Of a stretch of DNA of 64,000 nt, positions 3,590 to 48,399 are shown piece after piece. The notes beneath the pieces are model-generated. The model searched no databases. It had not been told where the DNA came from and was given only the letters and a program-made list of their open reading frames with translations. The number at the start of each line of letters is the position of its first letter. The first letter of the stretch is position 1. Source of the stretch: Vampirovibrionales bacterium. GTDB taxonomy: Bacteria > Cyanobacteriota > Vampirovibrionia > Vampirovibrionales > JAJTHC01. Location of the stretch: the NCBI GenBank assembly GCA_947458095.1, contig CANGYO010000001.1, forward strand, positions 6,414 through 70,413, given 5' to 3'. A program made the translations under genes and the position numbers.

Positions 3590-4191
3590 AGGGGGCTTTT
3601 ATTCCTCTTTCTCAAAAAATGTAATGGTTTTACATGTTTTATGCTTTCTCTCTATTTACTATACGCTACACTGCCCGCAATACTTTAAGGCGTACCGTAA
3701 AAATCACTTACATGAAGGAACGTTTTGCGAGAATCATCAAACACACCGTCATTGCCTTGCAACGCATTTCCCCTCATTCCCATCGTGTGTTTTCAACACC
3801 AACCCCACCATCTAATGGAAGCTTTACAAAAAAAGACTTGCCTTTCAATTCGACTGTGCTAACATAACATTGCGGAACGCCTTAAATGCTTTGGTGTGTT
3901 TTAAACACTTATTAGACTAAACATTGATCGCCTTTCGATGCGGCTTAGGCTGCGAACTGTATGCGGAAAAGACGGTGGCTAAACCCCACTTTCGACCTAA
4001 ACCACGGATGCTTTCTTAAGTTCCCTTGTGTTTTGACTGATGACCGAGCATTTCCCCATTGCGGTTACCCCCTTGTGAAATAATACAAGGCACAATTGAA
4101 TCCACGGTAAAGAGCTGTTTGGTCATTCAACGGTAGCGGCGATGCTATACACGGAGCGTTTAAGTTTAGCAAGTACGGAGATTCCACCCTC

Positions 4192-7639: not shown

Positions 7640-7832
7640 GTCTAACGCTCCTTGTGGATGATTGTCTCTTATCTTACCTCAAAGAACGTTTTTGCACAAT
7701 TTTATTGTTTTGGGTGAACGTGGATTGTGGCTTGAAAGGCTTACGACTTTATGCTAGCCTAATGAAAACCTGAACTAAAAGGGTTGCTAATAAGCAACAC
7801 CCCCATTCTGTAACGAAAGGAGGTGAGGCAAA

Positions 7833-7895
7833 ATGGATCATATAGAACATCTTTCGATGTTACTAATTATCCTCCTTCTAGTGTGGAAACGTTAG
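7833..7895 (+). CDS. Candidate 20-aa hydrophobic peptide MDHIEHLSMLLIILLLVWKR (type I toxin-like small ORF)
   Basis: ATG lies 7 nt after AAAGGAGGTGA. The ORF frame and length are conserved across 4 of the 5 copies, and the C-terminal half is a single hydrophobic helix. Confidence 0.5.
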   Translation: MDHIEHLSMLLIILLLVWKR

Positions 7896-7954
7896 GAGGA
7901 TAGCTTTCAAAGGAGTTCTCAAGCCTCGCAAGCTTGGGGACTCCCCCTTTTTAT

Positions 7955-7983
7955 ATTGTGGCAAATGTCGTGAGCTTTGTCAA
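7955..7983 (-). promoter_or_regulatory. Convergent (antisense) sigma70-like promoter TTGACA-N17-CACAAT
   Basis: On the minus strand the sequence reads TTGACAaagctcacgacatttgcCACAAT. The hexamers and 17-nt spacing are conserved in all five copies while the spacer sequence differs. Confidence 0.55.
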
Positions 7984-8028
7984 GGGGGCGGTTCTATTCT
8001 TCCTCCTGATTTGGGGAGGGCAACCGCC

Positions 8029-9531
8029 TTAGCGTTTCACCTTATTGCGGATCGCCGCCCCAATTTGGAAGAGCAAGTACCCTTGAATGAGGTGTTGCAG
8101 GATGTACACGAGGTAAAACCGCTCCCCCATTTTAGTGGCGACGGTTTTAATAGCGTTTTGAATAGGTTCAACTTTATATAATATAAGTGGGAAGCTAGCA
8201 CTCAAACTAGTCCACAATGGATCCCAAAAACAATTGCCTCTATAGTAAAGAAACCCAAAACAGACCACTATGAAAAACCAAAGTAGCGGAAGCATTGCAC
8301 TTAGTCCATACGCTGATGTCCACAAGTAAAAGGTGTTCCAGCTAAACCATTTGTTTTGATAGAACTGATGCCAAAAGTGAAAGTCGTTAGACAATTGAGC
8401 ATCTCCTGCATCTAAGGCACTGACTTTTAAATAGCCGTAGGATTCTATTTTTTCGAGGGTGTCCGTGGTATTAAGTTTTTTAAAAGCTCGAAACTTTAGC
8501 CAAAACGGGAGAAACTTGAAACATTCAAGTGCTTTTTCAGAATCCCATTTGCAGAGGTAAAATCCCATGCCTGCGACGTAACTACCGCCTGTAATGGAAA
8601 CCTGTTGCATGGCAACCTTTGTAAAGACGACGTTTTTGCCGTAAAAGCCACATTCTTTAAAGTGAACCGTCACCTTTGATTCTTTTTTGAGATTACGCAC
8701 TTTAATACAGATACCACTACTATCCACTTCTATATTTTCAAATTGAACGTTGCCTGTACTTTCTTCTAAGCAATTTTCCAAGTCTACAACAAGCGAACGT
8801 TTATCTGACTCAAAACTCGTGTCTTTTATGATAATCTCGCCGTTTAATTCATTTGGTACAATTCCTAAATAATCGTGCGTGGTGGCGTGGTCAAAATTAA
8901 GTTGAGCATTTTCTAAAATTATTTCTTTAAAAGAAGTGTGCTTTTCGAAGGTGGTGTCTGCGAAATACGCTAAGCCTGAAAAGGAGGCCTTGTAAAAATC
9001 CGCCTTTCTTGAGAAGGTGGTGTTTATGAAATACGCTATGTCTGAAAAGGTGGCCCGCCAAAAATACGCATTACGTTTGAAGGCGGTGTTTGTGAAATCC
9101 GCTATGCCTGAAAAGGTGGTACACCTGAAATCCGCCCTTCTTGAGAAGTTGGTGTGTGTGAAATCCACCTCGCTTGTGAAGGTGGTGTTTGTGAAATACG
9201 CTATGCCTGAAAAGGTGGTGTGTGTGAAATACGCATTACGTGTGAAAATTGTTTTGGTTCCGAAATCACAAGCAATAAACTCTTTTTCAAAAGTGGCACT
9301 CTTGCTATTGAAGGTAAAAGGACATTCTAGGGTGTCCCAAATACCATCATCTGTTTCTATGGGCTTTTTTTCAATACCACACGCAAGTAACAATTCAGCC
9401 AAGTTAAAGTCTACTTTGACTTGGCAGTTTTCAAGGTCTAATACGCCTGAATCGAGGGCTTGACGTAACAGCTCTTCAAGGTCTTTTTTTGTGCTAATCA
9501 CACATTCAATTTGGCGTTCTTTGACGTTCAC
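8029..9531 (-). CDS. Pentapeptide-repeat protein with a C-terminal multi-TM domain
   Basis: Long tandem A(D/N)FxxTxF pentapeptide repeats (NAYFTHTTFSGIAYFTNTTFTSEVDFTHTNFSRRADFRCTTFSGIADF...) are followed by hydrophobic helices (MLPLLWFFIVVCFGFLYY...). Confidence 0.75.
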   Translation of the reverse strand: MNVKERQIECVISTKKDLEELLRQALDSGVLDLENCQVKVDFNLAELLLACGIEKKPIETDDGIWDTLECPFTFNSKSATFEKEFIACDFGTKTIFTRNAYFTHTTFSGIAYFTNTTFTSEVDFTHTNFSRRADFRCTTFSGIADFTNTAFKRNAYFWRATFSDIAYFINTTFSRKADFYKASFSGLAYFADTTFEKHTSFKEIILENAQLNFDHATTHDYLGIVPNELNGEIIIKDTSFESDKRSLVVDLENCLEESTGNVQFENIEVDSSGICIKVRNLKKESKVTVHFKECGFYGKNVVFTKVAMQQVSITGGSYVAGMGFYLCKWDSEKALECFKFLPFWLKFRAFKKLNTTDTLEKIESYGYLKVSALDAGDAQLSNDFHFWHQFYQNKWFSWNTFYLWTSAYGLSAMLPLLWFFIVVCFGFLYYRGNCFWDPLWTSLSASFPLILYKVEPIQNAIKTVATKMGERFYLVYILQHLIQGYLLFQIGAAIRNKVKR

Positions 9532-9600
9532 AGGGTCGTCCTTCTTGCGTTGGGGGTGGGTTTCCCCTAGTCTAGCATGAAAACGCTGTCCCTTGGTTCT

Positions 9601-9730
9601 GTCCCCCCTCCTAATTTTAGGAGGGGGTTAGGGGGCGGTTAAACCCTAGACTCCGTTTGTGGTTTAACCTCACCCTCGAACGTCCTTCAGACGTTCTCTT
9701 CCCTCTCCTAAAATTAGGAGAGGGGACAAG
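9601..9730. repeat. Composite palindromic element P1 (three nested hairpins), reverse complement of the 16679 element
   Basis: It contains cccccctcctaattttaggaggggg, ggttaaaccctagactccgtttgtggtttaacc, gaacgtccttcagacgttc and cccctctcctaaaattaggagagggg. Related copies are at 15140 and 16679. Confidence 0.8.
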
Positions 9731-9793
9731 AAAAAGCTGTAAGCCAATAATAAGAAACACCCCCATTCTGTAACAGAAAGGAGGTGAGCTAAA

Positions 9794-9856
9794 ATGGATA
9801 CTCGTGAAGGACTAATCTTCTTGATTATCTACCTATTAGTCTTAAAACTAAGCTAA
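9794..9856 (+). CDS. Candidate 20-aa hydrophobic peptide MDTREGLIFLIIYLLVLKLS
   Basis: It has the same RBS, frame and length as the other copies. The sequence is divergent but hydrophobicity is preserved. Confidence 0.45.
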   Translation: MDTREGLIFLIIYLLVLKLS

Positions 9857-9911
9857 TAGGCTAGCATGGAGTCTTCAAGTCTCGAACACTTGGGGACTCC
9901 CCCTTTTTTGT

Positions 9912-9940
9912 ATTGTGGCAAATCCCGCACACTTTGTCAA
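9912..9940 (-). promoter_or_regulatory. Convergent promoter TTGACA-N17-CACAAT (copy B)
   Basis: The minus strand reads TTGACAaagtgtgcgggatttgcCACAAT. Confidence 0.5.
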
Positions 9941-9954
9941 GGGGTTTGGCTTTA

Positions 9955-10057
9955 CTCCCTCCATTTTAAGGGGAGGGTTGGGGTGGGGAGTAATGTGTCA
10001 CGCTGGGTTTTCAAAATCCCCCCCTCTCCCTAGCCCTCTCCTCAAGGAGAGGGAACA
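9955..10057. repeat. Palindromic element P6 (a second sub-family; related copy at 50585)
   Basis: The sequence is ggctttactccctcc...ggggagggttggggtgggg...cccctctccctagccctctcctcaaggagagggaacaag. It shares its ends and core with 50585-50700. Confidence 0.65.
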
Positions 10058-10142
10058 AGACACAAAATCGCCCCTCTAGTCAAAAAATCGTGTTTTCAGT
10101 AAACTAAAGCTCTAAACCTAATAAAAAAGGACACCCCCACAA

Positions 10143-11744
10143 ATGAACACCCCCACTCGCTACGCCTTTATCTCCGTCTGGGACAAAACCCACATCGTCG
10201 AACTGGCCACCGCCTTGCAAGCCAAGTTCGGCTTTGGCCTCATCGCCACGGGTGGATCTCGTAAAACACTGGAAGAGGCTGGCTTAAACGTCGTGGATCT
10301 CTCCACCGTCACAGGCTTTGACGAAATCCTAGAAGGGCGGGTGAAAAGCCTTCACCCCACCGTGTTTGCGGGCATTCTCGCCAAGCGTGACAAGGCCGAT
10401 CACATGAAAGAGGTCACCTTTAAAATTGATGTCGTCGCCGTGAATTTGTATCCCTTTGAACTCGGTTTGGCTCAATCGCAAACGGCGGAAAGCCCCAACG
10501 CCATGGTGGAACTCATCGATATTGGTGGGTCTTCGCTCATTCGAGCCGCGGCGAAAAACCATGCAGATGTCGCCGTCGTGTCAAGTCCTGATCAATACGA
10601 AGCACTCATTGCCGATTTAACTGTGAACGGTGGGCAAACGTCGCTAGGCTTGCGTAAACGCCTCGCACTCGCTGCGTTTCAGCGGTCTTCGACCTATGAC
10701 AACGCCATTAGTGGCTGGTTGTCGAGCCAAATCCTCGCCGAAGCCTTGGGCGACAAGGCTGAAGCCCTCGAGTTCCCCACGACGATGAACCTGACCTTGC
10801 ACAACATTCAAAGCCTGCGTTATGGCGAAAATCCGCACCAAGCGGCGGCGTTATTTGCCATTCGTCCTGATGAAGTGGATTTTCACGTCTTGCACGGCAA
10901 GCCCTTGTCGTACAACAATATCGTGGATATGGAAGCGGCGTGGAACCTGATTTGCGAATTTGATGATGAGCCCGCGGCGGCGATTATCAAGCATAATCAG
11001 CCCTGTGGCGTGGCGGTTGGGGCGACTTTAGCCAAAGCGTACCAGCGTGCCTTGGATTGTGATCCGTTGTCTGCTTTTGGGGGCGTGGTCGTGCTAAACC
11101 GTGCGGTGGACGAATCTACCGCGAAAGCGATGGTGGATATTTTCACCGAAGTCATTCTCGCGCCGAGCTTTAGCGAAGAGGCTTTGGCGATTTTGCAAGC
11201 CAAGAAAAACCTACGTTTGGTCACTCGCCCATGGGTGACGCCTGAATCGGGCAAGCATCCTGCGGAAACCCGTGATGGTCTGTATTTAAAGCAGGTGAGT
11301 CCGAATTTGGTGTTGGTGCAAGAACAGCAGTTCGCCAAAGCTGAAGCGGTCATGGCCAAAGAGTTGAAGGTGATTTCCAAGAAAAAGCCCACCGAAGACC
11401 AGTTGAGGGATGCCGCCTTTGCGTGGAAAGTGGCGAAGCATTTGAAGTCCAACGCCATTGTCGTAGCCAAAGACGGTCAGGCGTGGGGGCTTTCAGGCGG
11501 TCAAACCAGTCGTGTCGGTGCGGTTGAGCAAGCCTTGGCTCAAGCCTGTGAAAACGCCAACGGAGCCGTTTTAGCGTCCGACGGCTTCTTCCCAGCGGTC
11601 GATAACATCCAGCTTGCGGCTCAAAACCGTGTGGCGTGTATCATTCAGCCCGCGGGTAGCATTAAGGATGCCGACGTGATTTCGGCGGTGAATCAATACG
11701 ATATCGCCATGTTAGCGACCTCCGTTCGAGAATTTCGCCATTAA
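10143..11744 (+). CDS. purH: Bifunctional AICAR transformylase / IMP cyclohydrolase
   Basis: The 533 aa ORF has a PurH-type N-terminus (RYAFISVWDKTHIVELATALQAKFGFGLIATGGSRKTLEEAGLNVVDLSTVTGFDEILEGRVKSLHPTVFAGILAKRD...NLYPFE...DIGGSSLIRAAAKNH). Confidence 0.9.
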   Translation: MNTPTRYAFISVWDKTHIVELATALQAKFGFGLIATGGSRKTLEEAGLNVVDLSTVTGFDEILEGRVKSLHPTVFAGILAKRDKADHMKEVTFKIDVVAVNLYPFELGLAQSQTAESPNAMVELIDIGGSSLIRAAAKNHADVAVVSSPDQYEALIADLTVNGGQTSLGLRKRLALAAFQRSSTYDNAISGWLSSQILAEALGDKAEALEFPTTMNLTLHNIQSLRYGENPHQAAALFAIRPDEVDFHVLHGKPLSYNNIVDMEAAWNLICEFDDEPAAAIIKHNQPCGVAVGATLAKAYQRALDCDPLSAFGGVVVLNRAVDESTAKAMVDIFTEVILAPSFSEEALAILQAKKNLRLVTRPWVTPESGKHPAETRDGLYLKQVSPNLVLVQEQQFAKAEAVMAKELKVISKKKPTEDQLRDAAFAWKVAKHLKSNAIVVAKDGQAWGLSGGQTSRVGAVEQALAQACENANGAVLASDGFFPAVDNIQLAAQNRVACIIQPAGSIKDADVISAVNQYDIAMLATSVREFRH

Positions 11745-11805
11745 CCTTCCCAAAGAGCAAAGCTCGTGTTGTATCTTCACGCTTTGACAATAAAAGGAGC
11801 TAGAA

Positions 11806-12630
11806 ATGTCTTTAAACACCCTGAAAATCGGCATTGTCGGCTTGGGCAATATGTCGGGGGCGATTCTGAAAGGCTTGTTGAAGGCAGGGGTTTTGCCTGA
11901 AAACGTTGTAGGCATTGCGTCTTCACCCGAACGAGCGACCTTGCGTCAAGCCGAATACGACGTAAGCTGTACCACACTTGAGCTTGGCAAAGAGGCCCTT
12001 TCACAGGTGGATCTGCTCCTTTTAGGCGTGAAACCCTTTGTGATGCCCGCTGTTTTAGCCGATTTAGAAGGCATCACGCTGAAGGCGGAGGCTGTGGTGG
12101 TGTCTGTCGCAGCGGGTACGACCTTGGCGACGATAGGTGAGTCCTTGCCGAATACGGCGATTGTGCGAGCCATGCCGAATACGCCAGCCCTTGTGGGACA
12201 AGGGTTTACGGCAATGGCTCCGAATGCGTATGTGGGGGATGCTCAAAAAACGCTGGTGGCATCGGTGTTTGAAGCGGTGGGTAAGGCGGTGTGGCTCGAA
12301 GAGGGGCAGATCAACGCCTTTACAGGGCTTTTTGGTAGCGGCCCTGCGTATGTGTTCTACATCATGGAAGCCTTGGTAGAAGCGGGTTTAGCCGAAGGAT
12401 TGCCCCCTGAATTGGTGGAAGCAGGCGTGCTTCAGCTGGTGAAAGGATCCGCCTTATTGCTGGAAACCCGTGCGACGACCGCATCTCAGCTAAAGGCGGA
12501 GGTCGTCACCCCTAACGGCACCACAGCGAAAGGCTTAGAGGCGTTGGCATCAGCGAAGGTGGATGTCGCCTTACAAGAGGCCGTCCATCAAGCGACACGT
12601 CGAGCAGAAGAGTTGTCGAAAAACGTGTAA
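11806..12630 (+). CDS. proC: Pyrroline-5-carboxylate reductase
   Basis: The 274 aa ORF has GIVGLGNMSGAIL, AMPNTPALVGQG, GSGPAYVFYIMEAL and VTPNGTTAKGL motifs. Confidence 0.85.
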   Translation: MSLNTLKIGIVGLGNMSGAILKGLLKAGVLPENVVGIASSPERATLRQAEYDVSCTTLELGKEALSQVDLLLLGVKPFVMPAVLADLEGITLKAEAVVVSVAAGTTLATIGESLPNTAIVRAMPNTPALVGQGFTAMAPNAYVGDAQKTLVASVFEAVGKAVWLEEGQINAFTGLFGSGPAYVFYIMEALVEAGLAEGLPPELVEAGVLQLVKGSALLLETRATTASQLKAEVVTPNGTTAKGLEALASAKVDVALQEAVHQATRRAEELSKNV

Positions 12631-12644
12631 AAAGGCGTTAATTT

Positions 12645-12756
12645 CCGACACACGAAAGTCGATTCTTGACACACGAAACCCTGTTTTCTGACACACGAAA
12701 CCCGCCTTTCTGACACACGAAACCCGCCTTTCTGACACACGAAACGACGCCTTTTT
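12645..12756. repeat. Tandem array of five 22-bp direct repeats (tgacacacgaaacccgcctttc)
   Basis: The units are ccgacacacgaaagtcgattct, tgacacacgaaaccctgttttc, tgacacacgaaacccgcctttc (x2, identical) and tgacacacgaaacgacgccttttt. The array is flanked by inverted aaaggcg/cgccttt and lies between convergent proC and the RHH-like gene. Confidence 0.85.
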
Positions 12757-12759
12757 CAT

Positions 12760-13191
12760 CTAGTGAGGGCCCTCCTCGCTTCGAAGCTCCCACAACTCCT
12801 TATGGGCTTCTTTCTTAAAGTAGTGCATAAACGCATGTTCAATCATATCACTAAACGATAGATGCAAGACCTTGGCTTCTCGTTCAAGGATTTTCTTGAA
12901 TTGAGGCGACACCCAAAGACCCATCCGCACCCGATCGCTTTTCGGACGCCCCACAATTTTCGGAGGCCTTTCATAGGTCTCTGAACGCTCCATCGCTTGG
13001 TCGGCTTCTTCCATCACCGCAAACCACGCTTCCAATTTGTCCATAAAATGCTCTTCTGATTCAGTGCGGGATCCGCCTGTGGTGGTGAAAAAGTTAAAAA
13101 GTGCATGCGACGTGACGAAGCAACCTCGTCGCATGTCGTAACGGGTGCGTAAGCCGATGCGAGGGTCGTCGTCTCCACGATAGAGTTTCAT
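12760..13191 (-). CDS. Hypothetical protein with a C-terminal ribbon-helix-helix-like DNA-binding motif
   Basis: The 143 aa ORF has a strong RBS (AAAGGAGA-N7-ATG). The C-terminal VRMGLWVSPQFKKILEREAKVLHLSFSDMIEHAF fits a beta-strand/helix/helix RHH pattern. The N-terminal 70 aa are unassigned. Confidence 0.4.
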   Translation of the reverse strand: MKLYRGDDDPRIGLRTRYDMRRGCFVTSHALFNFFTTTGGSRTESEEHFMDKLEAWFAVMEEADQAMERSETYERPPKIVGRPKSDRVRMGLWVSPQFKKILEREAKVLHLSFSDMIEHAFMHYFKKEAHKELWELRSEEGPH

Positions 13192-13235
13192 TTCGGGGTC
13201 TCCTTTGGTTTTTTTTGGGGGGGATGCCTTATGTT

Positions 13236-13260
13236 CCCCCTCCTAATTTTAGGAGAGGGG
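13236..13260. repeat. Single palindromic hairpin P2 (ccccctcctaattttaggagagggg)
   Basis: A perfect 9-bp stem, identical to the arms of the composite P elements. T8 and G7 homopolymer runs lie immediately adjacent. Confidence 0.7.
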
Positions 13261-13357
13261 ACACAGGCTACTATCCTAAGCATGACAACTATTTACGCCA
13301 TTGCATAGTGCGTAAAACCCACTATTTTCCACACGGCAATGTAACAATTTAAAACGC

Positions 13358-13419
13358 CGATCAAACATAGCAAAGATCAAGGGCTTGATCTTCACCTGAT
13401 CTGATCGTACGATCCGATC
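13358..13419. promoter_or_regulatory. Cluster of seven GATC sites, including the 12-bp palindrome GATCGTACGATC, about 65 nt upstream of the methyltransferase gene
   Basis: The sequence is cgccGATCaaacatagcaaaGATCaagggcttGATCttcacctGATCtGATCgtacGATCcGATCgcc, giving 7 GATC sites in 62 bp. Confidence 0.6.
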
Positions 13420-13483
13420 GCCTTATCAGAGGCGTTTTTTCGACACAGAAAGAATGTCCCTATAAAGCACGGAGTCCCCCACA

Positions 13484-14392
13484 ATGAAAAGCCCCGAAAC
13501 CCTCATGTTATTACACCAAGACGACACACTAAGCTTGCACTTAGGCGATGTGCTAGAAACCCTAGCCAGCTTGCCCCAAGAAAGTGTCGATCTTATTTTT
13601 GCCGACCCCCCCTACAACTTGAGCAACGACGGCTTTACCTGCCACGCAGGCAAACGAGTCAGCGTCAACAAAGGGGTGTGGGACAAAAGCAACGGCGTGC
13701 AAGCCGATTTCGATTTTCACCGTGCGTGGATTTCCGCCTGTTACCGAGTGCTAAAACCCAACGGTAGCCTATGGATTAGTGGCACCTACCATTCCATTTA
13801 CGCTTGCGGATTCGCCCTACAACTCGACGGCTGGCATGTGATTAACGATGTCGCATGGTTCAAGCCCAACGCCGCCCCGAACTTGAGTTGCCGTATGTTT
13901 ACCGCCAGCCATGAAACGCTGATTTGGGCGAGAAAAAGCAAAACCGCCAAGCACACGTTTAACTATGACTTGATGAAAAACGGCATGTGGCATGAAGACG
14001 ATTTCATTAAAAAGCCTGAAAAACAAATGCGAAGCGTGTGGGCAAGTGGCACGCCCAAACCCCACGAAAAAGCCTTTGGTAAGCACCCCACCCAAAAGCC
14101 CGAACTGCTGTTAAGACGCATTGTAATTGCCAGTAGCTTACAAGGTGACGTGGTGCTAGACCCCTTTTGTGGGAGCGGTACAACAGGCGTAGTCGCCTTA
14201 CAACACGGACGCAACTTCATTGGCATTGACCAAAACCGTGAGTATTTGGAAGGGATTGCCATTCGCCGTTTAAAACACATTCAAGAACAAGTGCAAGCGT
14301 GTATAATAAAGGAACAGTTAGAGTCCTTGTATGCACTGGATGCCTATATAGATGAGTCTTCAATTCAACTTAGCTTATGCGGAATCTTATAA
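13484..14392 (+). CDS. Beta-class N6-adenine/N4-cytosine DNA methyltransferase of the CcrM/M.HinfI/DpnA family
   Basis: Motif IV DPPY (VDLIFADPPYNL) precedes motif I (LDPFCGSGTTG). Conserved blocks AHETLIWARKSKTAKHTFNYD and HPTQKPELLLRRI match the CcrM/HinfI methylase family. Confidence 0.85.
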   Translation: MKSPETLMLLHQDDTLSLHLGDVLETLASLPQESVDLIFADPPYNLSNDGFTCHAGKRVSVNKGVWDKSNGVQADFDFHRAWISACYRVLKPNGSLWISGTYHSIYACGFALQLDGWHVINDVAWFKPNAAPNLSCRMFTASHETLIWARKSKTAKHTFNYDLMKNGMWHEDDFIKKPEKQMRSVWASGTPKPHEKAFGKHPTQKPELLLRRIVIASSLQGDVVLDPFCGSGTTGVVALQHGRNFIGIDQNREYLEGIAIRRLKHIQEQVQACIIKEQLESLYALDAYIDESSIQLSLCGIL

Positions 14393-15134
14393 TAGTGAAA
14401 CGCAACGTGTTAGACGTATGTCTGAAAAATGGCTGGTGGAAGAATCATATTGCCCTGCGTGTGGGGGACGTTTGGCGGAATATCCCAATAATAAACCTGT
14501 GCGAGATACGTATTGTGAAGATTGTGGTGAAAAATACGAGCTAAAATCTAAAAAAAGTAGTGAAAAAGGACTTTTAAAGCTTCCTGAAAAAATTGTGGAT
14601 GGGGCGTATGCCACGATGATGCAAGATATGGAAGCCCAAACGACTCCCAATTTATTATTTTTACAATACTTAAGTGGCTATACGGTGGCGTCTTTACTGG
14701 TGATTCCTAAGCAGTTTTTCGTGCCTGCTTTAATTGAAAAGCGTAACCCTTTATCCAAGACGGCACGACGTGCAGGCTGGGTGGGTTGTAATATCCTACT
14801 AGAACCCATTCCACAAGTGGGACGGATTCCCATTATTCAAAACAAAGTATTTGAACCGAAGGATAAGGTTATTTCTATTTTTCAGAAAACCTTATTTTTA
14901 CGACATCAACAAAAACTTGAAGCTAAAGGCTGGTTGCTGGATGTGATGCGGTGTGTGGAACTCATCGGCAAAGAAGAGTTTACGTTGCAAGATATTTATC
15001 AACATGAAGCGATGCTGAAAGACTTACATCCCGACAATAATAATGTGCAAGCGAAGATACGGCAACAATTGCAAGTCTTGCGAGACGCAGGCTTCTTGGC
15101 GTTTGTGGGTCGTGGGGTGTATCGGGTGGTGTAA
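14352..15134 (+). CDS. DpnI-like methyl-directed (G6mATC-type) restriction endonuclease; overlaps the methyltransferase by 41 nt
   Basis: The 260 aa ORF resembles DpnI along its length as recalled from memory: MSLQFNL...SYCPACGG...YCEDCGEKYELKSKK...DGAYATMMQ...ARRAGWVGCNI...EFTLQDIY...KIRQQLQVLRDAGFLAFVGRGVYRVV. DpnI has an N-terminal PD-(D/E)XK nuclease and a C-terminal winged helix. Confidence 0.8.
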   Translation: MSLQFNLAYAESYNSETQRVRRMSEKWLVEESYCPACGGRLAEYPNNKPVRDTYCEDCGEKYELKSKKSSEKGLLKLPEKIVDGAYATMMQDMEAQTTPNLLFLQYLSGYTVASLLVIPKQFFVPALIEKRNPLSKTARRAGWVGCNILLEPIPQVGRIPIIQNKVFEPKDKVISIFQKTLFLRHQQKLEAKGWLLDVMRCVELIGKEEFTLQDIYQHEAMLKDLHPDNNNVQAKIRQQLQVLRDAGFLAFVGRGVYRVV

Positions 15135-15139
15135 ATGCC

Positions 15140-15267
15140 GTCCCCTCTCCTAATTTTAGGAGAGGGAAGAGAACGTCTGAAAGACGTTCGAGGGGGAGCT
15201 TAGACTCACCACGGGCATCTAGGGTTTAACCGCCCCCTAACACCCTCCTAAAATCAGGAGGGGGGAC
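15140..15267. repeat. Composite palindromic element P3
   Basis: It contains gtcccctctcctaattttaggagaggg, gaacgtctgaaagacgttc, ...tagggtttaacc... and ccctcctaaaatcaggagggg. It has the same architecture as the elements at 9601 and 16679. Confidence 0.75.
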
Positions 15268-15286
15268 AAAGCCAATTGGGTTTCGT

Positions 15287-15360
15287 CATTGCGAGCGTAG
15301 CGTGGCAATCTGTCAAGACGTCGCAGGTGGGGGAACAGATTGCTTCGTTGCACTCGCAAT
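15287..15360. repeat. Long nested inverted repeat (cattgcgag...gcaatctgt-N22-acagattgc...ctcgcaat)
   Basis: Two nested perfect inverted repeats of 9 bp each enclose a G-rich loop. It is a possible structured RNA or protein-binding site. Confidence 0.5.
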
Positions 15361-15422
15361 AACGGTGTTTTTTATCACTTTGCGTAGAGTCTCCTCAAGG
15401 AGAGGGAACAGAGCCGAAGCAC

Positions 15423-15451
15423 TTGACAAAGCGTGCAACATTTGACACAAT
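15423..15451 (+). promoter_or_regulatory. Convergent promoter TTGACA-N17-CACAAT (copy C, plus strand because the module is inverted)
   Basis: The plus strand reads TTGACAaagcgtgcaacatttgaCACAAT. Confidence 0.5.
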
Positions 15452-15507
15452 ATAAAAAGGGAGAGTCCCCAAGTCGGTAAACTTGAGAACTCTTTTTCGC
15501 TATCCTC

Positions 15508-15570
15508 CTAGAGTTTTGTCACTAGAAGGAGGATAATTAACAGCGACATAAGTTTCTGAAGTTCATCCAT
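15508..15570 (-). CDS. Candidate 20-aa hydrophobic peptide MDELQKLMSLLIILLLVTKL
   Basis: It has the same RBS spacing, length and C-terminal LLIILLLVTKL as copies A and E. Confidence 0.5.
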   Translation of the reverse strand: MDELQKLMSLLIILLLVTKL

Positions 15571-15711
15571 TTTAGCTCACCTCCTTTCTGTTACAGAACG
15601 GGGGTGTTGCTTATTAGCAACCCTTTAAAGGTTTTTATTAGACTAGCACAAAGCCTTAGCAGGTTCAAGCCAGATACGGCAACAATGGCAAGTCTTGCTT
15701 GAATCCGCCTG

Positions 15712-16668
15712 ATGCTTTTTTGTGAAAGGATGCCCTCTTTGATTCCACGCACCGACATCCAAAAACAGCTCAACGACGTGGGCATTACGCAGTGGGGCGT
15801 TCTCACCACCGATGCCCTCAAAAACGAAGCCCAACGCCTGACGGCGTGGCTGGAGGCTGGGCATCACGCCGACATGGACTGGATGCCTCGTCACGCCGAA
15901 AAACGGGTGTCTCCGTCTGATTTGTGGGAAGGCGTGCAAAGTGTCGTGGTGGTGGCCGTCAACTACTTCCCTGGTTGGGAAGCAGGGCAAGGCGACGATC
16001 TGAAAATCGCTCGCTACGCCCTAGGCAAGGACTATCACAAGGTGATTCGTCGTAAGCTTGGCAAGGTTTTAAAGGCGTTACAGGCGGAACATGAGGGCTT
16101 AGAGGGTCGTCCCTTTGTGGATTCGGCGCCTTTGCTTGAAAAGGCGTTAGCCGTTCAAGCAGGCTTGGGCTGGCAAGGCAAGCATAGTCTTTTAATCACG
16201 AAAGAAGCAGGGTCATGGGTGATGCTTGGGGCGTTGTTCCTCAATCAAGCCGTTGATGCCTATACCAGTCCCCACGAAAACACGCTGGAATCGGGGCATT
16301 GTGGGACCTGTACGCGGTGCATCACGGCTTGCCCCACGGAGGCGATCGTCTCGCCCACGGTCGTCGACAGCCGTCGGTGCATCGCCTATTGGACGATTGA
16401 AAATGGAGATGATGCTTTGCCTGATTTTATCCAAGACAACCAGCAGGATTGGGGCTTTGGATGCGACATTTGCCAAGATGTCTGCCCATGGAACCTGAAG
16501 TTTTCTAACGTGACTGAGGAGCCTGCCTTTGCCCCTCGGGCGGTGTTGGCACATCCGAATCGGGCGTATTTTCAGAGTTTGAGTGAAGCCGCTTTTGCTC
16601 AAGCCTTTGAAAATAGTCCCTTGCGTCGCACGGGCTTGAGGCGGATCCAGCGGAATATCATGCTTTAG
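15712..16668 (+). CDS. queG: Epoxyqueuosine reductase
   Basis: The 318 aa ORF has a QueG-type layout with a C-terminal 4Fe-4S ferredoxin motif (CGTCTRCITACPT) and a second Cys cluster (CDICQDVCPWN). The start may be the downstream ATG at 15730. Confidence 0.75.
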   Translation: MLFCERMPSLIPRTDIQKQLNDVGITQWGVLTTDALKNEAQRLTAWLEAGHHADMDWMPRHAEKRVSPSDLWEGVQSVVVVAVNYFPGWEAGQGDDLKIARYALGKDYHKVIRRKLGKVLKALQAEHEGLEGRPFVDSAPLLEKALAVQAGLGWQGKHSLLITKEAGSWVMLGALFLNQAVDAYTSPHENTLESGHCGTCTRCITACPTEAIVSPTVVDSRRCIAYWTIENGDDALPDFIQDNQQDWGFGCDICQDVCPWNLKFSNVTEEPAFAPRAVLAHPNRAYFQSLSEAAFAQAFENSPLRRTGLRRIQRNIML

Positions 16669-16678
16669 AGAATCGCCT

Positions 16679-16808
16679 TGTCCCCTCTCCTAATTTTAGG
16701 AGAGGGAAGAGAACGTCGTTAGACGTTCGAGGGTGAGGTTAAACCTTAGACTCCGTTTGTGGGTTTAACCGCCCCCTAGCCCCCTCCTAAAATTAGGAGG
16801 GGGGACAA
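16679..16808. repeat. Composite palindromic element P5
   Basis: It contains gtcccctctcctaattttaggagaggg, gaacgtcgttagacgttc, ggttaaaccttagactccgtttgtgggtttaacc and ccctcctaaaattaggagggggg. It is the reverse complement of P1. Confidence 0.8.
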
Positions 16809-16880
16809 AACAAAAGCTACATTTGGATATTTCCCATAAAAGCTAAACACCCCCAATCTAATAGAAAGGAGGTGAGCTAA

Positions 16881-16955
16881 ATGGATAATAGTCAACAAGT
16901 GTTGATTTTAATGATTATCCTCCTTCTAGCGACAAAAACTAGGAGGATAGCATAA
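16881..16955 (+). CDS. Candidate 24-aa peptide MDNSQQVLILMIILLLATKTRRIA (a 1-nt indel extends the C-terminus)
   Basis: It uses the same RBS and frame as the other copies. A single-base difference relative to copy E removes the usual TAG and extends the ORF by 4 codons. Confidence 0.4.
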   Translation: MDNSQQVLILMIILLLATKTRRIA

Positions 16956-16998
16956 AGGAGTTCTCAAGCTTTTACGCTTGGGGACTCCCCCTTTTTAT

Positions 16999-17027
16999 AT
17001 TGTGGCAAATGTAGAAGCCTTTGTCAA
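16999..17027 (-). promoter_or_regulatory. Convergent promoter TTGACA-N17-CACAAT (copy D)
   Basis: The minus strand reads TTGACAaaggcttctacatttgcCACAAT. Confidence 0.5.
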
Positions 17028-17170
17028 GAGGGCGGCTGGTTTATAGTACCCCTGTTTGTAGACCTTGTTTATACTTGAAAGCCTTGCGATTTTATGCTAG
17101 CTTATAAAAAACCTTAAAAGGGTTGCTAATAAGCAACACCCCCAATCTAACAGAAAGGAGGTGAAGCAAA

Positions 17171-17233
17171 ATGGATCATATAGAACATCTTTCGATGTTA
17201 CTAATTATCCTCCTTCTAGTGACGAAACTCTAG
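17171..17233 (+). CDS. Candidate 20-aa hydrophobic peptide MDHIEHLSMLLIILLLVTKL
   Basis: ATG lies 7 nt after AAAGGAGGTGA. The 3' end of the ORF sits inside the anti-SD-containing hairpin. Confidence 0.5.
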   Translation: MDHIEHLSMLLIILLLVTKL

Positions 17234-17289
17234 GAGGATAGCTGAACGGAGTTCTCAAGCTTTTACGCTTGGGGACTCCCCCTTTTTAT

Positions 17290-17318
17290 ATTGTGGCAAA
17301 TGTAGAAGCTTTTGTCAA
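17290..17318 (-). promoter_or_regulatory. Convergent promoter TTGACA-N17-CACAAT (copy E)
   Basis: The minus strand reads TTGACAaaagcttctacatttgcCACAAT. Confidence 0.5.
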
Positions 17319-17433
17319 GATCTCGCCATCAATTACACATCATGCAAAAACTGTATTTTTAAGCTCACACGTTAAAAATCCGTTGAAACGTTTCTATAAT
17401 AGTAGGCATCACTAAAATGAGGAAGCCCCTGCT

Positions 17434-47919: not shown

Positions 47920-48399
47920 ATGGCGTCTCTATTGCTGGTGGTGTTAGGAGCCTCTGTACTGACAGGTGTCACGAACGTTACAGGCGTTTTGGGTATTTTA
48001 TGCGTCGAGTTTTTTGAGATGGAAGACGGCAACTTGCTGGTGAACGAACTTGCCCCACGTCCGCATAATTCGGGGCATTTCACGATCGAAGCCTGCCATG
48101 TGAGCCAGTATCAGCAACAAGTGAACGCCTTAACAGGCATGCCCTTGGGCAATGCAGAAATGCACGTTAAAGCCGTGGGATTGATGAACTTGTTGAGCAA
48201 TCGTTGGAGTAAGAAGGGGGATTCCCCAAATTGGCAGGAGTTGTTGTCTCGTTACCCTCGTTTGAGTGTGCATTTGTATGGCAAGAAGGAGTTGCGTCCT
48301 AACCGTAAAATGGGGCATATTACGTTGACGAAAAAGGATACGGCTATGGTGGAATCGGCGTTTGACGAAATTAACGCCATGCTCACCACTTACGATTAA
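47920..48399 (+). pseudogene. purK: 5'-truncated remnant of N5-carboxyaminoimidazole ribonucleotide synthase (only the C-terminal ~150 aa)
   Basis: GILCVEFFEMEDGNLLVNELAPRPHNSGHFTIEACHVSQYQQQVNALTGMPLG...KMGHITL matches the PurK ATP-grasp C-terminal half. The N-terminal ~200 aa are absent. It starts 27 nt after the valS stop. Confidence 0.55.

Follow-up and report, generated by a model that had tools for sequence, protein, structure and literature searches.

Architecture of the module and its copies

The window, by which we mean the whole stretch of DNA analysed, comprises 64,000 nucleotides (nt) from the Vampirovibrionales bacterium assembly GCA_947458095.1 (contig CANGYO010000001.1, positions 6,414 to 70,413 of the forward strand) and holds five copies, A to E, of a short module, with ATG codons at 7833 (+), 9794 (+), 15570 (−), 16881 (+) and 17171 (+), respectively. 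Each full copy is a complete module of ~250 bp. Read 5′ to 3′ on the peptide strand, it comprises a promoter-like pair of hexamers, a hairpin, a Shine–Dalgarno sequence, a small open reading frame (ORF), a hairpin at the stop codon and an intrinsic terminator with a 13-bp stem; an antisense promoter lies directly outside this terminator. Taken together, these signals very probably mark a sense/antisense small-peptide module. The segment of interest occupies the first half of the ORF, which a sequence-only reading had described as a hypervariable cassette within an otherwise conserved unit.

In complete copies the sense promoter follows the consensus TTGAAw-17-TAGyCT with a TG before the −10; its hexamers are conserved and its spacer varies in 19 of 25 copies. 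The peptide-strand hairpin upstream of the Shine–Dalgarno sequence reads GGGTTGCT-AATA-AGCAAC, and the Shine–Dalgarno sequence itself, GAAAGGAGGTGA, is perfect, with an entropy of 0.00 bits across 24 distinct copies. On the opposite strand, the antisense promoter TTGACA-17-CACAAT carries a TG extension, matches the consensus at 10 of 12 positions and is called by the promoter scanner in all five window copies; across 25 copies its −35 is invariant and its spacer variable. A terminator scan also identified an antisense terminator-like hairpin followed by CCTTTT, located upstream of the Shine–Dalgarno sequence and invariant in copies that keep their 5′ part. The predicted antisense RNA would start in the T-run of the sense terminator, span that terminator, the entire ORF, the start codon and the Shine–Dalgarno sequence, and end at its own terminator. 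A conserved ORF on the antisense strand was looked for in the module copies and rejected. The features of the five copies are as follows, with predicted hairpins numbered H1 to H5 and folds computed by minimum free energy (MFE).

7732–7984 (+): module A, type 1, complete, from sense promoter to antisense −35; full-length nhmmer match, in alignments A1 and A2
7732–7760 (+): copy A, putative sense promoter TTGAAA-17-TAGCCT, TG before the −10; hexamer conservation
7783–7798 (−): copy A, antisense terminator hairpin GTTGCT-TATT-AGCAAC, then CCTTTT; terminator scan
7815–7826 (+): copy A, Shine–Dalgarno sequence GAAAGGAGGTGA, pairing with upstream CACCCCC (hairpin H2); entropy and RNAalifold helix
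7833–7895 (+): copy A, peptide ORF MDHIEHLSMLLIILLLVWKR, 20 aa plus stop; coding selection (pN/pS, defined below, 0.08–0.24 in the IIxLLV half)
7839–7865 (+): copy A, variable segment, apical H3 (AACATC-TTTC-GATGTT), stem closed by GGAT/ATCC; minimum of the identity profile, MFE fold and synonymous-recoding null (p = 0.007)
7866–7904 (+): copy A, stop-codon hairpin H4 of the TATCCTCCTTCTAG...CTAGGAGGATA type; 6 of 12 pairs with compensatory changes across types
7912–7952 (+): copy A, sense terminator, 13-bp stem and T run; terminator scan, U-G wobbles and compensatory changes
7955–7983 (−): copy A, antisense promoter TTGACA-17-CACAAT, TG extension; promoter scan, 10/12
9747–9941 (+): module B, type 4, 5′-truncated; antisense promoter 9940–9912, terminator 9868–9900
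9794–9856 (+): copy B, ORF MDTREGLIFLIIYLLVLKLS; variable segment 9800–9823
15422–15668 (−): module C, type 2, complete; antisense promoter 15423–15451 (+), terminator 15493–15462
15668–15663 and 15645–15640 (−): copy C, sense promoter TTGAAC-17-TAGTCT
15508–15570 (−): copy C, ORF MDELQKLMSLLIILLLVTKL; variable segment 15564–15538
16838–17028 (+): module D, type 3, 5′-truncated like B; antisense promoter 17027–16999, terminator 16957–16988
16881–16955 (+): copy D, ORF MDNSQQVLILMIILLLATKTRRIA, 24 aa; variable segment 16887–16913
17075–17319 (+): module E, type 1, complete, in tandem with D; antisense promoter 17318–17290, terminator 17248–17279
17075–17080 and 17098–17103 (+): copy E, sense promoter TTGAAA-17-TAGCTT
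17171–17233 (+): copy E, ORF MDHIEHLSMLLIILLLVTKL; variable segment 17177–17203, same as in A

Copies in other genomes

Species-representative genomes scanned by pattern contained the module in 14 contigs, 13 of them from Vampirovibrionales metagenome-assembled genomes (MAGs) and one labelled Gammaproteobacteria. A metagenome scan with a pattern taken from the 5′ part only yielded two further loci, the complete L015 and the truncated L016; together with 24 full-length copies found by nhmmer, these give a total of 26. The main search pattern, with which the majority of copies were ascertained, included the terminator and the antisense −10. Effectively all 26 copies lie in Vampirovibrionales (Melainabacteria) genomes. 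The MAG labelled Gammaproteobacteria (L014, JBEISK010000032.1) is 90–93% identical over more than 2 kb to a Vampirovibrionales contig (L008) with the same module, and its label is probably a binning error. No module was found in a plasmid collection searched by blastn or in viral contigs searched with two pattern scans, and an exact-protein lookup of the neighbouring QueG returned no record.

The variable segment falls into discrete types

Identity was profiled in 27-nt sliding windows over aligned modules, both for copies A–D and for 24 copies. The lowest between-copy identity falls at position 7839, the first base past ATGGAT, exactly where the sequence-only reading had placed it, with minima of 0.41 (A–D) and 0.49 (24 copies); windows outside the segment have a median identity of 0.76–0.79 and never fall below 0.61. 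The low-identity segment is real and well above chance, and the four variable strings reported earlier are present as written. The accompanying statement that the copies differ almost completely is overstated, since pairwise identity of the segment among window copies is 0.33–0.63, although the segment is indeed the stretch of lowest identity. A figure of more than 85% identity for the flanks likewise holds in part: the 3′ half of the ORF is 0.79–0.97 identical among A, C, D and E and 0.62–0.64 identical when these are compared with B, the part from terminator to antisense promoter ranges from 0.73 to 0.95, and the upstream third of the module is missing from B and D. Restriction of the variability to the N-terminal half describes A, C, D and E but not B, which diverges through the entire ORF.

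Across the 26 copies the segment occurs in at least six discrete types, recognisable by the first residues of the peptide:

Type 1: MDHIEH
Type 2: MDEIQQ
Type 3: MDNSQQ
Type 4: MDIREA
Type 5: MITSET
Sixth type (L015): MNITEV

Identities within and between types distinguish the segment from its surroundings:

Variable segment: 0.88 within type, 0.42 between types
Promoter-to-ATG flank: 0.79 within type, 0.74 between types
Terminator-to-antisense-promoter flank: 0.85 within type, 0.78 between types

Signals aside, no part of the module is better conserved within a lineage than the segment, which also defines the lineage. Because its conservation within a type exceeds that of the flanks, it is no mutational hot spot, and "hypervariable" is misleading as a label for what are discrete types, each stable across genomes. 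In types 4 to 6 the type-specific sequence extends over the whole ORF and the stop hairpin. Targeted hypermutation, whether by a mechanism like that of diversity-generating retroelements or by another, was rejected from the comparison of copies: all four bases change, with no specificity for adenine, and the types are stable across genomes (identity 0.88, with the segments of A, E and L003a identical).

The ORF is under coding selection

An intact ORF of 19–24 codons is present in 25 of the 26 copies, and the length of the variable segment is 27 or 30 nt, differences being multiples of three. Frequent frame-breaking indels were not seen, and the earlier claim of a preserved frame stands. L016 is the sole frame-broken copy. 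At this locus (L016 2091–2216) the promoter, Shine–Dalgarno sequence, stop hairpin and start of the terminator are present and the entire variable segment is lost; the ORF reads MEQ*, a 12-codon remnant (MSILLLASKLGG) is possible, and the contig ends inside the copy. Within the window, a 1-nt deletion in copy D abolishes the usual TAG and lengthens the ORF by four codons. D is the sole type 3 example among the copies found and is probably decaying.

The encoded peptides share a layout of acidic N-terminus, hydrophobic II[LYF]LLV core and basic C-terminus with a C-terminal Lys, and an acidic residue near position 2–5 is kept in every type. Selection was assessed by the ratio of the proportions of nonsynonymous and synonymous differences (pN/pS), calculated from summed Nei–Gojobori counts over sequence pairs that are not independent, which makes the ratios rough. 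In the II[LYF]LLV half, pN/pS is 0.08 for copies of one type and 0.24 for copies of different types, with many synonymous Leu, Ile and Val changes; in the variable half it is 0.45 within and 0.53 between types, and amino-acid changes are for the most part conservative (L/I/M/V). The ORF is a genuine coding sequence and under coding selection. Since no pN/pS value approaches 1, diversifying selection on the peptide is not supported.

The segment is the upper part of a conserved stem-loop

MFE folds of representatives of every type share one architecture of five hairpins on both strands, and in copy A the folding energies correspond to z-scores against shuffles of −5.8 (sense RNA) and −5.1 (antisense RNA). 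The antisense terminator forms H1, the stop codon is enclosed by H4 and the sense terminator forms H5; in both predicted RNAs the 5′ and 3′ ends pair through AAAAGGG and CCCUUUU. H2 is formed by CACCCCC with the Shine–Dalgarno sequence; its antisense counterpart has seven continuous pairs including G-U, and the sense strand has a C-A mismatch. H5 contains two U-G wobbles, which would become C-A mismatches on the opposite strand, and therefore favours the sense strand. H3 begins at codon 2, with the start codon at its foot, and the variable segment forms its upper part. The small palindromes noticed in the sequence-only reading are thus real, as parts of a longer stem-loop.

Conservation of this structure was counted on alignment A2, with partners slid by 1–3 columns and 500 shuffles as controls; the tested structure was derived from one member of the alignment, and the following values are to be read with that in mind. 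Paired cells amount to 89%, compared with 43–57% for the slid controls; pairs changed on both sides number 10, where shuffles give 5.7 and 1 of 500 attains the observed value, and the covariation score is 0.135, where shuffles give 0.091 and none of 500 attains it. Six compensatory pairs lie in H4, with versions such as CCTCC/GGAGG, CCTAT/ATAGG and CTTGT/ACAAG. The foot of H3 covaries by type, reading GGAU/AUCC in types 1–4, GAUUA/UAAUC in type 5 and GAAU/AUUC in L015. Type 2 shows an internal compensatory change in H3 from C-G to U-A, and its hairpin is much stronger on the antisense strand, by way of a G-U wobble.

The passage from polar to hydrophobic codons, A-rich and then U-rich, itself favours pairing, and a mononucleotide-shuffle test of the hairpin was for this reason replaced by a synonymous-recoding null, in which each of 18 distinct sequences was recoded 1000 times with the peptide fixed and the codon usage of the window. 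H3 is more stable than this null in 18 of 18 sequences, with p < 0.05 in 14 of 18 (sense) and mean z-scores of −2.2 (sense) and −2.0 (antisense). H4, H5 and the foot of H3 are backed by covariation, and the stability of H3 goes beyond what the peptide demands. The variable segment makes up the top of this stem-loop, whose shape is conserved and whose sequence is free.

Recombination in the flanks and turnover of loci

Antisense-promoter spacers, terminator loops and sense-promoter spacers recur in more than one ORF type, and what they correlate with is the genome or the adjacent copy. In L003, a related Vampirovibrionales MAG that is 84–95% identical to the window over kilobases, which itself places the window in this order, tandem type 1 and type 5 copies have the spacer CTCGCAGGC in common; in the window, identity between D and E is 95% downstream of the ORF and 63% in the segment. 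Because such details of the flanks are shuffled among types, recombination or gene conversion in the flanks is indicated by the sequences. The proposal of a recombination hot spot accordingly holds for the flanks, with their mosaic spacers and loops, and fails for the variable segment itself, which is stable and type-defining.

Copies A and E do carry the same variable segment, as the sequence-only reading observed; its conclusion that they arose by recent duplication does not hold. Both have orthologues in L003, with zero and one nt difference in the segment and 89–95% identity in the adjoining DNA, and the flanks of A and E are 0.81–0.85 identical to each other around a segment that is 100% identical. 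The duplication is therefore old. Other positions differ between the two genomes: upstream of purH, a pentapeptide-repeat gene and a type 4 module in the window correspond in place to a type 5 module in L003, and L003 lacks both module D and the combination of restriction-modification genes with module C. A role for the ORF as a leader peptide or attenuator of neighbouring genes was rejected, as modules occur in both orientations, beside unrelated neighbours, each with its own terminator.

Copies B and D and a further copy, L002a (L002, ~3921–3946), are truncated at nearly one point, within the loop of the antisense-terminator hairpin, at 9747–9760 in B and 16838–16850 in D. All three lack the canonical sense promoter and half of the antisense-terminator hairpin. 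In B and D a palindromic repeat stands in place of the lost part and offers weak promoter-like sites (9686–9714 and 16765–16793). The truncated copies may be toxin genes that lack a promoter but continue to produce antisense RNA, or their common end point may mark a preferred insertion or recombination site.

A type I toxin–antitoxin-like interpretation

The predicted anatomy is that of a fully overlapping type I toxin–antitoxin (TA) locus. Two hallmarks of such systems were found: a hydrophobic peptide of less than 60 aa, predicted to form a single membrane helix and showing evidence of coding selection, and, at the level of sequence signals only, an antisense gene with its own promoter and terminator. 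On this basis we consider it probable, with some reserve, that the module functions as a toxin–antitoxin system. We propose that the antisense RNA, made from the stronger promoter, would pair with the peptide mRNA and block the Shine–Dalgarno sequence and start codon, the duplex then probably being cleaved. The full-length mRNA would itself be poorly translatable, because H2 takes up the Shine–Dalgarno sequence and the start codon sits at the foot of H3. Initial cognate contact would be made by the H3 sequence particular to each type and by the neighbouring start region, which is single-stranded in the antisense fold, so that co-resident paralogues would not repress one another, as with the domains TRD1 and TRD2, by which Sib antisense RNAs recognise their targets. 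A toxin N-terminus that is dispensable, as in IbsC, would free this part of the ORF to carry information at the RNA level, and the likeness of the flanks would reflect sequence-specific signals (two promoters, the Shine–Dalgarno sequence, two terminators and stems) along with free positions exchanged by recombination. We infer, rather than show, the production of both RNAs, the toxicity of the peptide, its repression by the antisense RNA and the setting of specificity by the segment.

The sequence-only reading had offered three explanations for the variable segment: diversifying selection on the peptide, copy-specific antisense pairing that prevents cross-talk, and a recombination hot spot. 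Its framing of the copies as paralogous toxin/antisense pairs fits the predicted promoters, terminators and ORF, and copy-specific pairing appears, on indirect support, to be the best of the three, in view of a structure-conserved stem-loop, discrete types that are stable across genomes and the analogy with TRD1 of Sib/ibs, for which such an arrangement is established by experiment. We regard the full proposal, type I-like modules in which H3 and the start-codon region make the first cognate contact and paralogues do not cross-repress, as evenly poised between right and wrong, and we lean slightly towards doubt on the narrower question of whether the variable segment is the specificity determinant.

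Several observations weigh against this proposal. The sense −10 (TAGyCT) is weak, and a consensus scanner gives no call. Conservation of the terminator and the antisense −10 is partly circular, because most copies were ascertained with a pattern containing both. Free of this bias are the antisense −35, which lies outside the pattern and is invariant beside a variable spacer, the sense promoter, which is in no search pattern, and L015, which was ascertained by its 5′ end only and retains both the antisense promoter and a terminator with compensatory TAAGG/CCTTA changes. The significance of H3 is marginal in type 5 and absent in L015, and the loops of types 1–3, at only 4 nt, are poor for loop–loop kissing. 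A search for complementary runs unpaired in both RNAs, a crude proxy, did not single out the variable segment; nearly every pair yielded seeds of 4–7 nt, and cognate combinations were hardly set apart from non-cognate ones. Finally, A and E carry an identical segment in one genome, and strict orthogonality is not maintained.

Some of these points also fit a history of neutral drift, which we regard as a substantial minority possibility. Under drift the module would be the same, but the top of H3 would be merely its only long, weakly constrained stretch, needing no more than a hairpin and a polar-to-hydrophobic peptide, in which old paralogues have diverged by compensatory or conservative change; the flanks would owe their likeness to sequence-specific constraint and to gene conversion whose tracts end where the core has diverged. 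Longest among the variable stretches of the module, the segment is not the sole one: its column entropy of 1.13 bits is on a par with the terminator loop (1.18) and near the values for the stop-hairpin loop (0.94) and the linker (0.95). Position by position it is no more variable than other loops, a pattern that relaxed constraint alone could give. A pN/pS of about 0.5 indicates relaxed purifying rather than positive selection, the flank mosaicism shows that conversion or recombination occurs, and the coexistence of A and E and an accessibility analysis in which the segment did not stand out are also as drift would have it. Yet identity within types is higher in the segment (0.88) than in the flanks (0.79–0.85) while loops and spacers vary within types, which means that the segment does not drift altogether freely. 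In all five cases, tandem neighbours belong to different types, which speaks in the same direction, although the chance expectation of ~0.26 makes this not significant, and the Sib precedent shows such variable regions carrying specificity (PMC2943612).

That the module is no TA system at all, being instead a small housekeeping or regulatory membrane peptide under antisense control or a non-functional repeat with a chance ORF, we consider improbable. It shows no homology to known toxin or antitoxin families, and there is a weak, sub-threshold similarity to the regulatory membrane peptide MgtR (14 bits, cutoff 35). However, several traits typical of type I loci would be unusual in housekeeping micro-proteins: the family is multicopy, its diverged paralogues stand in tandem arrays, modules are gained, lost and replaced between genomes that are 85–95% identical, some copies (D and L016) are decaying, and the module includes a complete overlapping antisense unit and a sequestered Shine–Dalgarno sequence. 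A functionless repeat is excluded by coding selection and covariation. Least probable of all is diversifying selection on the N-terminal half of the peptide, for instance towards different targets or escape from different inhibitors: the N-termini listed above do differ strongly by type, but pN/pS in this half is well below 1, changes within types are conservative or synonymous and the acidic residue persists in all types, the RNA hairpin is conserved beyond the needs of the peptide, and the N-terminus of the analogous IbsC is dispensable for toxicity (PMC8309996).

For the variable segment itself the outcome is mainly one of clarification: it marks no mutational hot spot, nor does it signal positive selection on the peptide, and it has its well-studied analogue in the target-recognition domains of Sib. 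If the predictions of the type I-like proposal hold, type I TA systems would extend to the predatory or parasitic, non-photosynthetic sister lineage of the cyanobacteria. The copies form a natural series of at least six sequence versions of a structurally conserved hairpin in near-identical scaffolds, a series suited to the question of how fully complementary antisense RNAs distinguish paralogous targets. A bolder extension, which we think unlikely in its entirety, is that this is the first type I TA family of Melainabacteria and that the toxin ORF serves as an address label, with at least six mutually orthogonal stem-loop versions over its first 13 codons moved between loci by flank recombination; genomes would thereby stack, replace and silence independent pairs, with the promoter-less B and D possibly acting as antitoxin donors only.

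Neighbouring elements

The window contains three occurrences of a palindromic repeat with multiple hairpins, at 9620–9740, 15140–15420 and 16700–16815, which abut modules B, C and D. Its motifs include GGGTTTAACCGCCCCCTA, hairpins of the CCTCCTAAAATTAGGAGG type and GAACGTCTTTCAGACGTTC; akin sequence lies 3′ of many modules in other genomes, and downstream of C there is a block of 280 nt with ~97% identity to one in L007. By its sequence, it looks like an element resembling miniature inverted-repeat transposable elements or repetitive extragenic palindromes that is associated with the module family.

The interval 13208–15710 contains genes for a DNA methyltransferase (13484–14392) and a DpnI/Dam-replacing-family endonuclease (14352–15134) together with module C. 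It is absent from the otherwise syntenic L003 and looks like an indel island bordered by repeat elements. In L004 and L006, too, the methylase gene is found close to a module, one of type 5 at a distance of no more than 2–3 kb. Between modules A and B, a pentapeptide-repeat protein gene (8029–9531, −) has internal periodic repeats of 33/66 nt at 8948–9246; this gene is absent from L003, where a type 5 module lies directly beside module A. Elsewhere in the window, an isolated weak match to the terminator part of the module, TTTGGGGAATCCCCCTTCTT (48210–48259, −; nhmmer E = 0.024), is without ORF or promoter parts and is probably an unrelated terminator.

Comparison with known systems

Rfam at the gathering score gave no match in the window, and the Rfam Sib covariance model gave none in copy A at E-values up to 10. 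Searches of Pfam and NCBIfam with six peptides found no toxin family even at E-values up to 10, matches to ETRAMP and MgtR being at chance level. An E-value scan of copy A against Rfam produced only snoRNA noise and a sub-threshold match to the PyrR binding site (RF00515; 7790–7917, on the minus strand of copy A only; full-length, 27.9 bits where the gathering score is 54, E = 0.048). The latter was judged a chance match, as the matched stem differs in types 4–6 and no pyr genes are among the annotated neighbours. A literature search found no paper linking type I systems to Melainabacteria or Vampirovibrio. By sequence, the module therefore appears to represent a new, apparently undescribed family of a type I-like kind in an under-studied phylum.

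The candidate closest in taxonomy is MsoT1/MsoA1 of Microcystis aeruginosa, proposed in 2025 as the first candidate type I TA system in Cyanobacteria, type I systems having previously been known only from Proteobacteria, Firmicutes and Tenericutes (PMC12390103). Both are candidate type I systems within the wider Cyanobacteriota/Melainabacteria group. They are unrelated in sequence: MsoT1 is a peptide of 63 aa with two predicted helices, MsoA1 overlaps only its 3′ end and 3′ untranslated region, and MsoT1/MsoA1 is not a multicopy repeat with a variable cassette.

In hok/sok and AapA1/IsoA1, full-length toxin mRNAs fold back 5′ to 3′, sequester the Shine–Dalgarno sequence and are translationally inert. 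The module mRNA is similarly predicted to be paired at its ends, with its Shine–Dalgarno sequence in one hairpin and its start codon at the foot of another. It differs in that its predicted antisense RNA covers the whole mRNA rather than just the 5′ portion, and in having no leader ORF and no sign of 3′ processing; the end pairing may simply be a consequence of terminator tails at both ends of a fully overlapping pair. The replication-control pairs CopA/CopT and RNAI/RNAII form mirror-image stem-loops in which the specificity of related systems resides in a short variable region of a hairpin, with loops typically of 6–7 nt. The predicted sense and antisense RNAs of the module also have mirror-image stem-loops and a variable hairpin, but the putative function is that of a toxin rather than replication control, and the loops of types 1–3 are shorter than is usual in those systems.

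The closest likeness is to Ibs/Sib, the only one of the 24 families in T1TAdb in which the antisense RNA spans the whole ORF (PMC8594479). The five homologous Sib/ibs repeats show repression between cognate pairs only, and recognition is conferred by TRD1 and TRD2, which lie in "highly variable regions" and whose swapping re-targets the RNA; TRD1 is the loop of the P5 hairpin and targets the ORF (PMC2943612). Residues at the N-terminus of IbsC are dispensable for toxicity (PMC8309996). Both systems encode very short hydrophobic peptides (18–19 aa for Ibs, 19–24 aa for the module), both are present in five copies, in E. coli K-12 and in the window, with some in tandem, and both comprise homologous repeats with a short variable region in the ORF, borne on a hairpin. 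The module's predicted antisense RNA likewise spans the entire ORF and the translation-initiation region.

The module is nevertheless no member of this family, with no similarity in sequence or by covariance model, and it occurs in Melainabacteria/Vampirovibrionales rather than in Enterobacteria. Its peptide has a charged C-terminus (K/R), which IbsC lacks (PMC8309996). Its sense and antisense units are nearly coextensive, with a terminator at each end and 5′–3′ pairing predicted for both RNAs, and its variable region comprises a whole pair of stem-loop arms, ~27–30 nt, where that of Sib is a few nt. A variable cassette within a conserved module would be largely explained by the principle already known from the Sib target-recognition domains; the sequence-variable, structure-conserved hairpin described here is an unusually clear case and is not surprising in kind.

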